DNA from: Bacteroidota bacterium
GTDB taxonomy: Bacteria; Bacteroidota; Bacteroidia; Bacteroidales; JAIOZK01
NCBI GenBank assembly: GCA_034521425.1
Contig: JAXHMP010000001.1
Coordinates: 2,779,182-2,843,181 of the forward strand
Reading direction: 5' to 3'
DNA length: 64,000 bases
Part shown: in pieces, positions 47,642-52,366 of the stretch
Layout of the letters: each line of letters begins with the position of its first letter
Numbering within the stretch: position 1 is the first letter of the stretch
The notes under the pieces: generated by a model
The model's input: only the letters and a program-made list of their open reading frames with translations
Told to the model about the DNA's origin: nothing
Database searches by the model: none
Made by a program: the position numbers and the translations under genes

Positions 47642-47781
47642 ATGAATAAGATTGCACTAATTACAGGAATAACCGGTCAGGACGGCGCCTACCTAGCCGA
47701 ATACCTGATCAAAAAAGGATACATTGTCCATGGGATCAAAAAGAAGAGCTTCCCTGTTCAGATACCGACAGGATGGATCAT
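47642..47781 (+). pseudogene. gmd: GDP-mannose 4,6-dehydratase 5' fragment, copy 1 (most diverged)
   Basis: [34 protein letters not shown].. breaks at ..ggatcat|gaggtaacgaagc. Confidence 0.85.
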
Positions 47782-48419
47782 GAGGTAACGAAGCTATGAG
47801 AGGTGAGAGGTGAGAGGTGAGAAGTGAGAGGTGAGAGGTGAGAGGTGAGAAGTGAGAGGTGAGAGGTGAGAGGGTGAGAGGTGAGCCTGCTAACTTCATA
47901 ATTTAAAGTACTAACACCATGAGTCAACTTGGAGATAGCGATGAGAGATGAGTGGTGAGAGGTGAGACTGCTAACTTCATAATTTAAAATACTAACACCA
48001 TGAGTTCAAATTGGAGATAGCGATGGAGATGAGGGTGAGAGGTGAGACTGCTAACTTCATAATTTAAAATACTAACACCATGAGTCAGAAATGGAAATAG
48101 CAGTGAGAGATGAGAGGTGAGAGATGAGATTTGAGAGATGAGAGGTGAGAAATGAGCTAGCCAAGTTCAATATGTAAAACATCAACACCATGAGTTAGAA
48201 TGGAAATAGCGGTGAGAGATGAGCGGTGAGAGATGAGATCTAGACTAAGCGTGCAGATAGATATAAACATCAAACCGCCCCTGTCCGAATACGAGAGATG
48301 AGAGGTGAGAATGATTGAAGATGAGCTCACGAGAGAATGCAGTAAGTGACCGACATATGTCAAACTCTCATTCTGCCAGTTTCACCACTCATGAAAGATC
48401 GCTCATAACTTAAAAAACC
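47782..48419. repeat. GAGAGGT STR interleaved with ~60-bp core units that each contain the four-helix-bundle gene start
   Basis: Four units of ..ctgctaacttcataatttaaaatactaacaccATGAGTCAGAA..ggaaatagcg + (gagaggt/gagagat)n. Confidence 0.85.
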
Positions 48420-48794
48420 ATGAGTCAGATTAACAGTTTTAGGGATTTGATTGTATTTAAAAAAGCCTATGAAGTCGGAATGGAAATTTTTGAGATAACA
48501 AAGAACTTTCCCAAGGAAGAAAAGTATTCGCTTACAGATCAGATTCGAAGGTCTTCAAGATCTGTCACATCAAACATAGCCGAAGCCTGGGCTAAAAGGA
48601 TATATGTCAAATCTTTTGTCAGCAAGCTGAGTGATTCACTCGGCGAGAGAATACGAATCAGAGGTCTGGTTGGACTATTCCAGAGATTGCCGATCATTAA
48701 TACAGAAACCTACAATTCACTGATAAACAAATACAACGAAGTCAGGAAAATGCTAATCGCAATGATCAATAGTCCAGAAAAATTCTGCAAGTGA
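48420..48794 (+). CDS. Four-helix-bundle protein (IVS-protein family) with a compensated double frameshift
   Basis: 124 aa, about 90% identical to 50555-50929. The exception is 17 codons (ERIRIRGLVGLFQRLPII versus EEYESEVWLDYSRDCQYI) caused by +1 (near 48647) and -1 (near 48692) indels. Possibly non-functional. Confidence 0.65.
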   Translation: MSQINSFRDLIVFKKAYEVGMEIFEITKNFPKEEKYSLTDQIRRSSRSVTSNIAEAWAKRIYVKSFVSKLSDSLGERIRIRGLVGLFQRLPIINTETYNSLINKYNEVRKMLIAMINSPEKFCK

Positions 48795-48822
48795 GTACAT
48801 CTTAAAAATAAACGACCCCCTA

Positions 48823-48868
48823 ACTCACTACTCACCTCTCACTACTCATCTCTCATCTCTCAAATCTC
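48823..48868. repeat. Inverted STR (CTCACYW / ACCTCTC)
   Basis: Complement orientation of the GAGAGGT family, immediately 3' of the ORF. Confidence 0.85.
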
Positions 48869-49100
48869 AATAACCTCAAACATTGCTGAAGCCTGGGCGA
48901 AGAAAATATATGTCAAATCTTTTGTCAGCAAGCTGAGCGATTCACTCGGCGAGGAATACGAATCAGAAGTCTGGCTGGACTATTCCAGAGATTGCCAATA
49001 CATTAATACAGAAACCTACAATTCACTGATAAACAAATACAACGAAGTCAGAAAAATGCTAATCGCCATGATGAACAACCCAGAAAAGTTCTGCAAATAG
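48869..49100 (+). pseudogene. Four-helix-bundle gene, 3' two-thirds fragment
   Basis: ..SNIAEAWAKKIYVKSFVSKLSDSLGEEYESEVWLDYSRDCQYINTETYNSLINKYNEVRKMLIAMMNNPEKFCK* has no 5' end. Confidence 0.8.
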
Positions 49101-49104
49101 CAAA

Positions 49105-49158
49105 ACTCACCTCTCATCTCTCATCTCTCATCGCTCACCTCTCACCGCTCACCGCTCA
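49105..49158. repeat. Inverted STR (CTCAYCK)
   Basis: ctcacctctcatctctcatctctcatcgctcacctctcaccgctcaccgctc. Confidence 0.85.
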
Positions 49159-49232
49159 AATCTTTTCATCATTGTCCAAAAATATGTACATTTGATATTA
49201 CGTTAGTTCAGAAGTAAATAAAGCCGATAATA

Positions 49233-49713: not shown

Positions 49714-49760
49714 AAAATGCTAATATACATGAGCAACAACCCAAACAACTTCTGCAAATA
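49714..49760 (+). pseudogene. Last ~15 codons of another four-helix-bundle gene
   Basis: KMLIYMSNNPNNFCK* versus [15 protein letters not shown]. This suggests the TA pair displaced most of that gene. Confidence 0.6.
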
Positions 49761-49847
49761 GCAATCCTTTTTCCCTTTTCCCTTTTCCTTTCTCCCTACT
49801 TTGCTTTTAAAAAAGAAAATTAACTTACAAAACAATCAACAATTGAC

Positions 49848-49985
49848 ATGAAAAAAACCGCACTAATAACCGGCATCACCGGCCAGGATGGCGCTTACCT
49901 CGCCGAGTACCTGATCAAGAAAGGATACATCGTCCATGGGATCAAAAGAAGAGCTTCCCTGTTTAACACCGACAGGATCGATCAT
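49848..49985 (+). pseudogene. gmd: GDP-mannose 4,6-dehydratase 5' fragment, copy 2
   Basis: [46 protein letters not shown]|EVTKR*. About 9 mostly synonymous differences from 51139-51276. Confidence 0.9.
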
Positions 49986-50554
49986 GAGGTAACGAAGCGA
50001 TGAGAGGTGAGAGGTGAGAGGTGAGACTGCTAACTTCATAATTTAAAATACTAACACCATGAGTCAAATTGGAGATAGCGATGAGAGATGAGAGGTGAGA
50101 GGTGAGACTGCTAACTTCATAATTTAAAATACTAACACCATGAGTCAGAATGGAAATAGCGGTGAGAGATGAGAGGTGAGAGATGAGATTTGAGAGATGA
50201 GAGGTGAGAAATGAGCTAGCCAAGTTCAATATGTAAAACATCAACACCATGAGTCAGAATTGAAATAGCGATGAGAGATGAGTGGTGAGAGGTGAGACTG
50301 CTAACTTCATAATTTAAAATACTAACACCATGAGTCAGAATTGGAGATAGCGATGAGAGATGAGAGGTGAGCGGTGAGAGATGAGAAGAGAGAACAAACC
50401 GCCCCTGTCCCGGAATAGAGATGAGAGGTGAGAGATGAGACTGCTAGACTTCATAATTTAAAATACTAACACCATGAGTCAGAATTGAAATAGCAGTGAG
50501 AGATGAGAGGTGAGAGATGAGTTTGCCAGTTTCATAGTATAATACCTTAACACC
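49986..50554. repeat. GAGAGGT STR + repeated ~60-bp core units carrying the ORF start (5 units)
   Basis: ACACCATGAGTCAGAAT recurs at about 50050, 50130, 50240, 50325 and 50470 before the real start at 50555. Confidence 0.85.
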
Positions 50555-50929
50555 ATGAGTCAGATTAATAGTTTTAGGGATTTGATTGTATTTAAAAAAG
50601 CCTATGAAGTCGGAATGGAAATTTTTGAAATAACCAAACATTTTCCAAAAGAAGAAAAATATTCGTTAACCGATCAAATTCGAAGATCATCCAGATCAGT
50701 AAGCTCAAACATAGCCGAAGCTTGGGCCAAAAGGATTTATGTCAAATCTTTTGTCAGCAAGCTGAGTGATTCACTCGGCGAAGAATACGAATCAGAGGTC
50801 TGGCTGGACTATTCCAGAGATTGCCAATATATTAATACCGATACCTACAATTCATTGATAAACAAATATGACGAAGTCAGAAAAATGCTAATCGCTATGA
50901 TCAATAGTCCAGAAAAATTCTGCAAGTAA
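50555..50929 (+). CDS. Four-helix-bundle protein (23S rRNA IVS protein family)
   Basis: Intact 124 aa: FRDLIVFKKAYEVGMEIFEITKHFPKEEKYSLTDQIRRSSRSVSSNIAEAWAKR.. Confidence 0.85.
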   Translation: MSQINSFRDLIVFKKAYEVGMEIFEITKHFPKEEKYSLTDQIRRSSRSVSSNIAEAWAKRIYVKSFVSKLSDSLGEEYESEVWLDYSRDCQYINTDTYNSLINKYDEVRKMLIAMINSPEKFCK

Positions 50930-50956
50930 GAACATCTAAGAACAAACGATCCCCTA

Positions 50957-51073
50957 ACTCATAACTCATCTCTCACCACTCACCACTCACCGCTCACTAC
51001 TCATCTCTCACCTCTCATCTCTCACTACTCACTACTCACTACTCACCGCTCACCTCTCACCGCTCACCTCTCA
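50957..51073. repeat. Inverted STR (CTCAYYR heptamers)
   Basis: ctcataactcatctctcaccactcaccactcaccgctcactactcatctctc... is the complement of the left-arm heptamers. Confidence 0.9.
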
Positions 51074-51138
51074 ATATCTAAAAGCTTTAACTCAATTAAC
51101 AAGATAAACGATATTAACAAAAACACAAACTCAACAAC

Positions 51139-52366
51139 ATGCAAAAAACCGCACTAATAACCGGCATCACCGGCCAGGATGGCGCCTACCTCGCCGAGTA
51201 CCTGATCAAAAAAGGATACATTGTCCATGGGATCAAAAGAAGAGCTTCTCTGTTCAACACAGACAGGATCGACCACCTTTACCAGGATCCACATGTGGAG
51301 GACCGGAACTTCATCCTGCATTACGGCGACATGACCGACAGCATGAACCTCACCCGCATCATACAGGAAGTGCAGCCGGATGAGATCTATAACCTGGCTG
51401 CACAAAGCCATGTAGGCGTGAGTTTTGAAACGGCAGAGTATACGGCCAATGCAGATGGTGTGGGTACGCTCAGGATATTGGAAGCAGTCCGTTTGCTTGA
51501 TTTAACGAAGAAAACCAGGATCTACCAGGCTTCTACTTCCGAGCTCTATGGCATGGTGCAGGAGGTGCCACAAAGCGAGAAAACGCCTTTTTATCCAAGA
51601 TCGCCTTACGGGGTGGCCAAGATGTATGCCTACTGGATCACGGTCAACTACCGGGAGGCCTATGGCATGCATGCCAGCAATGGCATCCTGTTCAATCATG
51701 AGTCGCCCATACGGGGCGAAACCTTCGTCACCCGCAAGATCACCCGGGCCATCGCCAGGATCGCCCTGGGCATGCAGGAAAAGCTCTACCTCGGCAACCT
51801 CTCCGCCCAACGCGACTGGGGCCACGCCAAGGATTATGTCAAAGCCATGTACCTCATCCTCCAGCAAGACGAGCCGGATGATTATGTCATCGCCACCGGC
51901 ATCACCACACCGGTCAGAGACTTTGTGCGGAAAGCCTGTGCAAACCTGGGAATAGAGGTCTCTTTCGGAGAAGGAAAGGAGGAAAAGGGCTACATCACCG
52001 CCATCGATGAAACAACATTCAAAGAAAAAGTCGGGAGCAAGTATCTAGAAAAAATCAGATCCCATATCGCCCCTTCGCCCAGTCGCCCCATCGCCCCATC
52101 GCCCAGTCGCCCCATCGCCCCCTCGCCCCCTCGCCCCCTCGCCCCTTCGCAAGCTATTGTTGCGGTGGATCCACGCGTATTTCCGTCCAACAGAAGTGGA
52201 ACTCCTCATCGGAGACCCGACCAAAGCCAATACCAAACTGGGCTGGAAACCGGAATACGACCTGGATGGCTTGATCAAGGACATGATGCAATCGGATATT
52301 GAGTTGATGAAAAGGGATAGTTATTTGCGGGATGGGGGGTATCGGGTGATGAATTACTTTGAATAG
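51139..52366 (+). pseudogene. gmd: GDP-mannose 4,6-dehydratase, full length but with a repeat insertion and one frameshift
   Basis: Canonical GMD sequence throughout (..[32 protein letters not shown]..). An extra G near 52177 splits ..AVDPR|[17 protein letters not shown].. into two frames. This may be a sequencing error. Confidence 0.85.
52066..52150. repeat. TCGCCCC(N) STR inside gmd, in frame ([27 protein letters not shown])
   Basis: About 11 units. Located in the variable loop just before the conserved ..IVAVDPRYFRP.. segment. Confidence 0.85.

Follow-up and report, generated by a model that had tools for sequence, protein, structure and literature searches.

We analysed a 64,000-nt stretch of a metagenome-assembled Bacteroidota genome (contig JAXHMP010000001.1, positions 2,779,182 to 2,843,181; hereafter the window), which has 38% GC and carries a polysaccharide-synthesis region. 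In it, three directly oriented copies of the first 138 nt of gmd (codons 1-46) stand in series (copies 1, 2 and 3, or c1, c2 and c3), with start-to-start distances of 2206 and 1291 nt. As an earlier note on this DNA had it, c3 alone runs on into the rest of gmd; the window holds no other gmd 3′ fragment. The copies delimit two units, unit 1 (47782-49985, 2.2 kb) and unit 2 (49986-51276, 1.3 kb), which carry open reading frames (ORFs) of a four-helix-bundle (4HB) family between short tandem repeat (STR) arms. The pattern fits recombination in a short gmd segment better than a self-sufficient mobile element. The reading that we favour, at about even chances, is that one illegitimate fusion was followed by homologous, Campbell-type additive recombination inside the 5′ segment of gmd, for which a double crossover with a donor already so arranged could stand equally well.

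Comparing the copies, we find that c2 differs from c3 at exactly 9 of 138 nt (8 synonymous changes and 1 non-synonymous), in agreement with the earlier count of about nine, mostly synonymous. c1 is more diverged, as had also been seen. It shows 19 differences from c3 (14 synonymous, 5 non-synonymous), and two 1-nt insertions at ~47738 and ~47761 shift its frame. Four of the five non-synonymous c1-c3 changes fall in the variable codons 2 and 4. The synonymous shares, 8/9 and 14/19, compare with 26% for random substitution (P < 5e-5). Since truncated copies are not under such selection, this excess implies that each gmd 5′ end diverged as part of a working gene. Judged from their sequences, c1, c2 and c3 are different functional alleles, not decay products; the earlier note, too, took them for different alleles, and together with the unrelated leaders (below) this rules out a simple local duplication. 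The direct repeats flanking each unit are 138 nt long and 86-94% identical, as target repeats of the attL/attR (attachment-site) type would be. Downstream of c3, the full-length gmd is interrupted in frame by 8-mer repeats, (ATCGCCCC)n, at 52066-52150, with a shorter version at the same spot in the relative L161, and an extra G at ~52177 puts its last ~60 codons out of frame. Given this extra G, the only full gmd copy may be a pseudogene or hold a sequencing error.

c1 and c2 stop at the same nucleotide, GATCAT followed directly by GAGGTAACGAAGC, and then run into (TGAGAGG)n arrays, as previously described. The sequence after both ends reads GAGGTAACGAAGC, then T or G, then ATGAGAGGTGAG, with a 13-mer found exactly twice in the window. 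A common left end, GAAGCNRTGAGAGG (also written GAAGCGRTGAGAGG), is present in all three cassettes of the region, the third of which lies behind fcl. There it adjoins the fcl stop directly (TAG followed by GAAGCGGTGAGAGG, that is, TAG and GAAGCGG) without any linker, while at c1 and c2 the identical 8 nt GAGGTAAC precede it. At other loci, the left repeat arrays of cassettes likewise begin at or just after stop codons. The two junctions are identical even in their 8-nt linker, which does not belong to the cassette end, and so share one origin by descent; the proposal of two independent insertions at one codon is not supported. The linker looks like flanking DNA kept from one illegitimate fusion and later copied by homology, and not like an element end that went in twice.

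Two candidate sources of the linker were rejected. It is not the end of gmd left by an internal deletion, as gmd ends in ..TTTGAATAG in the window and in the relatives L161 and L162, and it is not the end of fcl, as 0 of about 60 fcl genes end in GAGGTAA. The 9-mer ATGAGGTAA lies inside some 4HB ORFs (coding DEVRK in L081, L082 and L154), at chance frequency overall. A microhomology, ATGAG, common to the junction and to the start of the mini-units and 4HB ORFs described below, is only suggestive.

The copies are also mosaic. Of the c1-c3 differences, 13 lie in nt 1-60 and 6 in nt 111-138; nt 61-110 have none. For this gap of 51 nt, P is about 0.001, likewise on third codon positions alone. The c2-c3 differences cluster in nt 111-138 (Fisher P = 0.017), and c1 and c2 have a common 3′ type that is also present in L161 and L162. 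c1 is composed of a unique allele in nt 1-60, a middle part (nt 61-110) equal to copy 3, and a 3′ end resembling copy 2. A reciprocal mosaic of the kind expected of Campbell-type integration is seen, on few informative sites, and this mosaicism points to crossovers inside the 138-nt gmd segment. The attL/attR-like footprint of the earlier note survives in part: its topology stands and the mosaic fits two successive crossovers within 138 nt, but the view of these as copies of a mobile element is not supported.

Homology starts at the ATG, as claimed before, and the leaders upstream are unrelated. The local alignment of leader 2 with leader 3 gives P = 0.35, and over the 32 nt beside the ATG the leader similarity scores stay within the range seen against unrelated relatives. 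Aligning unit 1 with unit 2, identity rises from ~82% at the gmd start to 95-98% across the junction and mini-units, and is at the random level in the leaders. Only the left end is conserved between the units; no relationship is seen between the leaders that form their right ends. The Bacteroidota -7 motif TAnnTTTG is in none of the three leaders; it is found only ahead of the toxin-antitoxin pair (DUF2683/YoeB) of unit 1, where the -7-like motif TACATTTG stands at 49187. With two unrelated leaders that both lack this motif, the suggestion of an element bringing its own promoter and leader finds no support.

Neither unit encodes an integrase or a transposase, in line with the earlier note. Their ORFs are only 4HB, DUF2683 and YoeB, and no unaccounted stretch is longer than ~180 nt, too little room for a recombinase. 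The search for recombinases covered both units and the 64-kb window of the 4.09-Mb genome, and the window overall contains DDE transposase and IS3 remnants only. As had been stated, 4HB ORFs stand between inverted STR arms and a YoeB pair is present; however, unit 1 holds three 4HB pieces, not one.

We compared the window with 168 related loci in total, including 80 Bacteroidota genome loci and 80 metagenome loci with related 4HB ORFs. The relatives L161 (NPIE01011603) and L162 (an ENA contig) both encode a GMD 94% identical to that of the window. In these two, the stop codon of a family 2 glycosyltransferase (GT2) gene stands directly before the gmd ATG, there is no cassette, and the gmd 5′ end is single. 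Their DNA matches the window only from the gmd ATG onward, with no upstream homology. On this comparison, gmd is the first conserved gene after the strain-variable region in this clade, and its position at the boundary alone explains unrelated upstream DNA beside similar coding DNA.

The sites of L161 and L162 are empty, and no other occupied gmd site was found in other genomes. A second gmd 5′ end occurs in 0 of the 80 genome loci, and the junction in 0 of the 80 metagenome loci and in none of these 160 loci overall; viral contigs gave no match to the junction pattern. Querying 5.8 billion proteins with the copy-2 ORF, we obtained none with the ..DHEVTKR tail; the matches were randomly truncated or frameshifted GMD fragments, none with an EVTKR tail. 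A recurrence of the structure is not borne out in these loci, in L161 and L162 or in the protein database, and the stacked gmd 5′ ends are found in only one genome within the loci and proteins searched. The cassette family occurs at other places in L092, L167 and L168 of the same clade, even as the same composite of a toxin-antitoxin pair within a 4HB cassette.

Two other contigs also show a broken gmd. L164 has a gmd stub to codon 47 followed by a DUF4160 gene; this contig is 1.1 kb long and the search favours such lengths, and we give it no weight. In L163 (an ENA contig), a leader and gmd nt 1-135 at 1150-1389 are flanked by a perfect 37-nt inverted AT-rich repeat, which starts at the fcl stop, and the break is 3 nt from that of the window. 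With a coverage of 2.4x, this structure is probably a fold-back artefact.

In the favoured reading, the gmd start would mark the limit between strain-variable polysaccharide genes and conserved sequence. One illegitimate event may have fused gmd codon 46 to the 8-nt linker GAGGTAAC, with its TAA, ahead of a 4HB/STR cassette, and the block of gmd 5′ part, linker and cassette would then have spread by homology. The 4HB cassettes with their STR arms would act as portable homology; cassettes of the same family lie elsewhere in the window and in relatives and can supply dispersed homology. Two related units, each made of the block plus unrelated cargo and a leader, would have come with DNA from other strains. 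Each would have been added in Campbell fashion by a crossover in the first ~60-110 nt of gmd, presumably RecA-type and not site-specific; a double crossover from a donor already bearing the arrangement would be equivalent. With each event, the 5′ end then in place would have moved upstream, and the working gene would have begun with the incoming one. Copy 1 would then consist of the resident nt 1-60 and the tail of unit 1; copy 2 of the head of unit 1, the resident middle and the tail of unit 2; and copy 3 of the head of unit 2 and the resident remainder of the gene. The resident allele would be c1 (nt 1-60), c2 (nt 61-110) and c3 (nt 111 to the end) taken together, and the two incoming alleles would be ~96% identical to each other, each crossing over between nt ~60 and ~110.

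Several points weigh against this reading. The mosaic tests rest on few informative sites, with a Mann-Whitney P of 0.053, and a single instance offers no check on the succession of events. For RecA-type recombination, 138 nt of homology at 85-95% identity make a short arm. Both proposed crossovers lie within the same ~50-nt interval, which would also fit a site-specific core. The linker GAGGTAAC has no match among gmd ends, ~60 fcl ends and 4HB ORFs that would give its source. Moreover, the quality or the decay of the broken window genes could blur fine details.

The junction could instead be a deletion scar, which we consider unlikely. Three modules of leader, gmd, (GxxExxY), fcl and cassette, with different alleles and built as the third unit still is, would once have stood in tandem. 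In one of them, a deletion would have run from gmd nt 139 as far as the final 8 nt of whichever gene preceded its cassette, and gene conversion bounded by the gmd 5′ segment and the cassette would have copied this deletion onto a second module. Cassette left ends (GWAGCGGTGAGA) do stand directly after stop codons, behind fcl in the window and in L110, and many other loci have a left repeat array that begins on a stop codon or shortly behind one; the linker reads like a gene end (..TAA-C-GAAGCG), and the intact gmd-GxxExxY-fcl module itself lies between two directly oriented cassettes. However, the window holds no remnant of a gmd 3′ part or of another fcl, the GAGGTAA end is in none of the ~60 fcl genes or of the gmd genes examined, and the three tandem gmd-fcl modules needed were seen in 0 of the 168 loci. 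A scar would also leave unexplained that c3 equals c1 at nt 61-110 but has a different 3′ end. Decidedly unlikely, to our mind, are integrase-less integrative elements moved by a site-specific recombinase that acts in trans on a core in the gmd 5′ end, similar to the cis-mobilizable elements (CIMEs) stacked beside an integrative and conjugative element (ICE). Such elements would agree with the attL/attR-like layout, in which every event restores the gene end, with the empty sites of relatives and with the position of both proposed crossovers at nt ~60-110, and a 26-nt stretch over which c2 equals c3 (nt 85-110) could be the core. Yet the units contain no recombinase and the window only the remnants named above, the right ends (leaders) are not conserved between the two units, no other gmd site in the 168 loci is occupied, and neither a ..DHEVTKR-tailed ORF among the 5.8 billion proteins nor the junction pattern in viral contigs was found.

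An assembly artefact, in which a long-read metagenome assembly set end to end the alternative haplotypes of several strains at one locus, with perhaps one unit in each, seems quite improbable. The DNA does come from a metagenome-assembled genome (4.09-Mb contig), many window genes are frameshifted (fcl has 3-4 indels within 150 nt, and ORFs of at least 300 aa make up only 15%), and the three gmd copies are allele-like. But the units differ by ~1 kb of unique content and by unrelated leaders, so they are not versions of one segment, and the only possible joining overlap is 138 nt. A 170-nt element resembling a miniature inverted-repeat transposable element (MITE), 99-100% identical at three places in the window, suggests fair consensus accuracy. 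Independent assemblies of relatives also have STR-interrupted genes (an Epimerase_2 gene in L167 and L168), and even in an artefact the junction would still be real in two strains. A simple local tandem duplication of cassette, leader and gmd 5′ end followed by neutral drift would give direct repeats with a common junction. Such a duplication should leave equal similarity in non-coding DNA and neutral divergence in the truncated copies; instead, the differences are overwhelmingly synonymous, the leaders are unrelated beside 94%-identical coding segments, and c1 is preceded by a variable-locus gene and not by a cassette, all of which make it very improbable. The neighbouring nuclease-family genes had been suggested as drivers of a co-conversion like that of homing endonucleases, and ORFs of the GxxExxY (PD-(D/E)XK) and GIY-YIG families are indeed nearby. 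This is scarcely credible: at least 7 distant Bacteroidota have GxxExxY in the gmd-fcl interval and no duplication, the GIY-YIG ORF is a 41-aa fragment inside the MITE of another cassette, and neither nuclease ORF is within the units.

The gmd stack is a variant of known recombination and accretion footprints. The SXT/R391 ICE integrates at the 5′ end of prfC with its own tyrosine integrase, a short defined att core and a defined promoter. As in SXT/R391, a conserved gene receives a new 5′ end from the incoming DNA, and the displaced original stays at the other border; unlike there, the stack is without an integrase, conserved leaders or a promoter motif. At fda of Streptococcus thermophilus, the site of ICESt1 and ICESt3, integrase-less CIMEs stack next to ICEs. 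The gmd units resemble CIMEs in standing, integrase-less and with att-like direct repeats, in tandem at one gene end. CIMEs, however, keep conserved att sites and need the integrase of a related ICE, and for the gmd stack we found no partner, conserved right end or recurrence. Campbell-type integration, merodiploidy and homology-facilitated illegitimate recombination are usually known from experiments or from recent near-identical duplications. The stack is like Campbell-type integration in that one crossover in a short homology yields direct repeats around added DNA and mosaic repeat copies, and like homology-facilitated illegitimate recombination in that one illegitimate joint plus one homologous anchor explains the unique junction. 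It departs from the usual Campbell-type cases in keeping three long-diverged alleles in series.

Should crossovers confined to 138 nt of a conserved gene have built the stack, short conserved gene ends bordering variable polysaccharide loci would be integrase-free landing pads for foreign DNA, and displaced gene ends would persist as a readable record of allele replacements. 4HB cassettes with inverted heptamer arrays are common beside gmd and fcl in Bacteroidota; the gmd stack, a single case in a gene-poor, repeat-laden genome, is an anecdote for now. A bolder idea, which we hold only tentatively and think unlikely as a whole, is that the block of gmd 5′ end, linker and 4HB/STR cassette is the core of an integrase-less translocatable unit. 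Through RecA or an unlinked recombinase, it would pass from one genome to another by a crossover in the first ~110 nt of gmd; it would take differing cargo along, for example the toxin-antitoxin pair, and displace the resident 5′ end on each occasion. The 4HB heptamer-array cassettes would then be a widespread undescribed class of selfish modules in Bacteroidota, similar to intervening sequences (IVSs), that seed such units.

The features of the region are collected in the table. Each mini-unit of the left arms repeats the sequence ahead of the 4HB ORF together with the first 10 nt of that ORF, and includes ATGAGTCAGA and an STR. The arms of unit 2, as RNA, pair across the 4HB ORF. The 4HB profile matches reach 116.7 bits for PF05635 (cut-off 33.8) and 110 bits for TIGR02436 (cut-off 24). 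The YoeB toxin matches PF06769 and TIGR02116 above their cut-offs, and the small upstream overlapping antitoxin gene is DUF2683, not YefM. Within the toxin-antitoxin DNA (49233-49762), the DUF2683 gene and the 4HB C-terminal remnant are 89-96% identical to L167 12888-13204, a different locus in a related metagenome-assembled genome in which the YoeB gene is largely deleted. This match at another locus indicates that the composite of toxin-antitoxin pair and 4HB cassette is older than its arrival at gmd.

Table. Features of the gmd region, in window coordinates
Feature	Position	Strand	Remarks
gmd 5′ copy 1 (c1)	47642..47781	+	codons 1-46; two 1-nt insertions; mosaic
Junction 1	47782..47796	+	linker GAGGTAAC and cassette left end GAAGCTA; linker has an out-of-frame TAA
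Cassette A, left arm	47797..48240	+	(TGAGAGG)n, then about four mini-units of 80-109 nt
4HB ORF A	48420..48794	+	PF05635 family; +1/-1 compensated frameshift
Partial 4HB copy	48867..49158	+	codons ~49-124; 4HB part 48867-49100, then (CTCACCT)n arm
DUF2683 antitoxin and YoeB toxin pair	49233..49713	+	inside a third, mostly deleted 4HB cassette
4HB C-terminal remnant	49714..49797	+	16 codons; remnant 49714-49762, then its own (TTTTCCC)n arm
Leader 2	49800..49847	+	unrelated to leaders 1 and 3
gmd 5′ copy 2 (c2)	49848..49985	+	codons 1-46; 93-94% match to L161 and L162
Junction 2	49986..50000	+	second copy of linker GAGGTAAC, and GAAGCGA
Cassette B, left arm	50001..50554	+	(TGAGAGG)n and about six mini-units
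4HB ORF B	50555..50929	+	intact; PF05635 E=7e-34; TIGR02436
Cassette B, right arm	50958..51073	+	(CTCACCT)n, the inverse of the left arm
Leader 3	51076..51138	+	no significant similarity to other leaders
Full-length gmd	51139..52366	+	first 138 nt are copy 3 (c3, 51139-51276)
GxxExxY / PDDEXK_3 ORF	52411..52806	+	between gmd and fcl
fcl (GDP-fucose synthase)	52857..54041	+	3-4 single-base indels in first 150 nt; STR hairpin insert
Third cassette	54042..55178	+	directly after fcl stop; right arm 55000-55178; 4HB ORF split by MITE with GIY-YIG fragment

Examining related 4HB ORFs with both flanks, we found inverted-repeat flanks that score above every shuffle in 67 of 79 and direct repeats in 24 (alignment test). 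In the window cassettes and in loci L081-L160, many of these flanks are built of heptamers, (TGAGnnn)n before the ORF and (nnnCTCA)n behind it, and the left array runs from the stop codon of the upstream gene. The duplex energy of the flanks as RNA (-75 kcal/mol against a shuffle mean of -54) is not discriminating, and the two strands score 40 vs 34; the lack of strand bias in pairing strength indicates flank complementarity at the DNA level. 4HB ORFs occupy the same kind of spot by gmd or fcl in L001, L003, L055 and L162, and gmd or fcl is closely followed by a GxxExxY (PDDEXK_3) ORF in several distant Bacteroidota families (L004, L005, L018, L020, L025, L050 and L053), as in the window. The cassettes resemble the IVSs of 23S rRNA (PF05635 / TIGR02436) in having an ORF of the same family bracketed by inverted repeats; unlike those, they are not in rRNA but just after protein-gene stop codons, and their arms are heptamer tandem arrays. 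We found very little literature on 4HB-family cassettes with inverted heptamer arrays.

Such arrays are not confined to 4HB ORFs, since a DUF4143 ATPase gene (55325-56593) is also bracketed by inverted heptamer arrays, at 55000-55178 and 56666-56754. In the third cassette, the 4HB ORF (54338-54965) is split at codon ~44 by a ~250-nt insert with the terminal inverted repeats CACCCTGTCAAATAA, which carries the 41-aa GIY-YIG fragment; in L092, a related small inverted-repeat insert breaks up mini-units. Of the three copies of the 170-nt MITE-like element (6649-6818, 54156-54325 and 63114-63283), the second lies inside the third cassette.

ORFs of at least 300 aa cover only 15% of the window, and the DegT, NeuB, GT2, IS3 and fcl genes are fragmented. 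These broken genes reflect either an assembly indel rate of ~0.1% or real decay in a repeat-laden genome. Rfam and tRNA scans detected no RNA genes in the window, and exact-protein look-ups of its ORFs returned no record. A large complex tandem array with units of ~110-400 nt at 85-97% identity occupies 58644-61714, and related units are present in L167. At 53704-53803, fcl is interrupted in frame by hairpin-like repeats, (AAAGTCA)n/(GACCTTC)n, and the same repeat family is found after gmd in L161 and L162 and flanking the 4HB ORF of L162.

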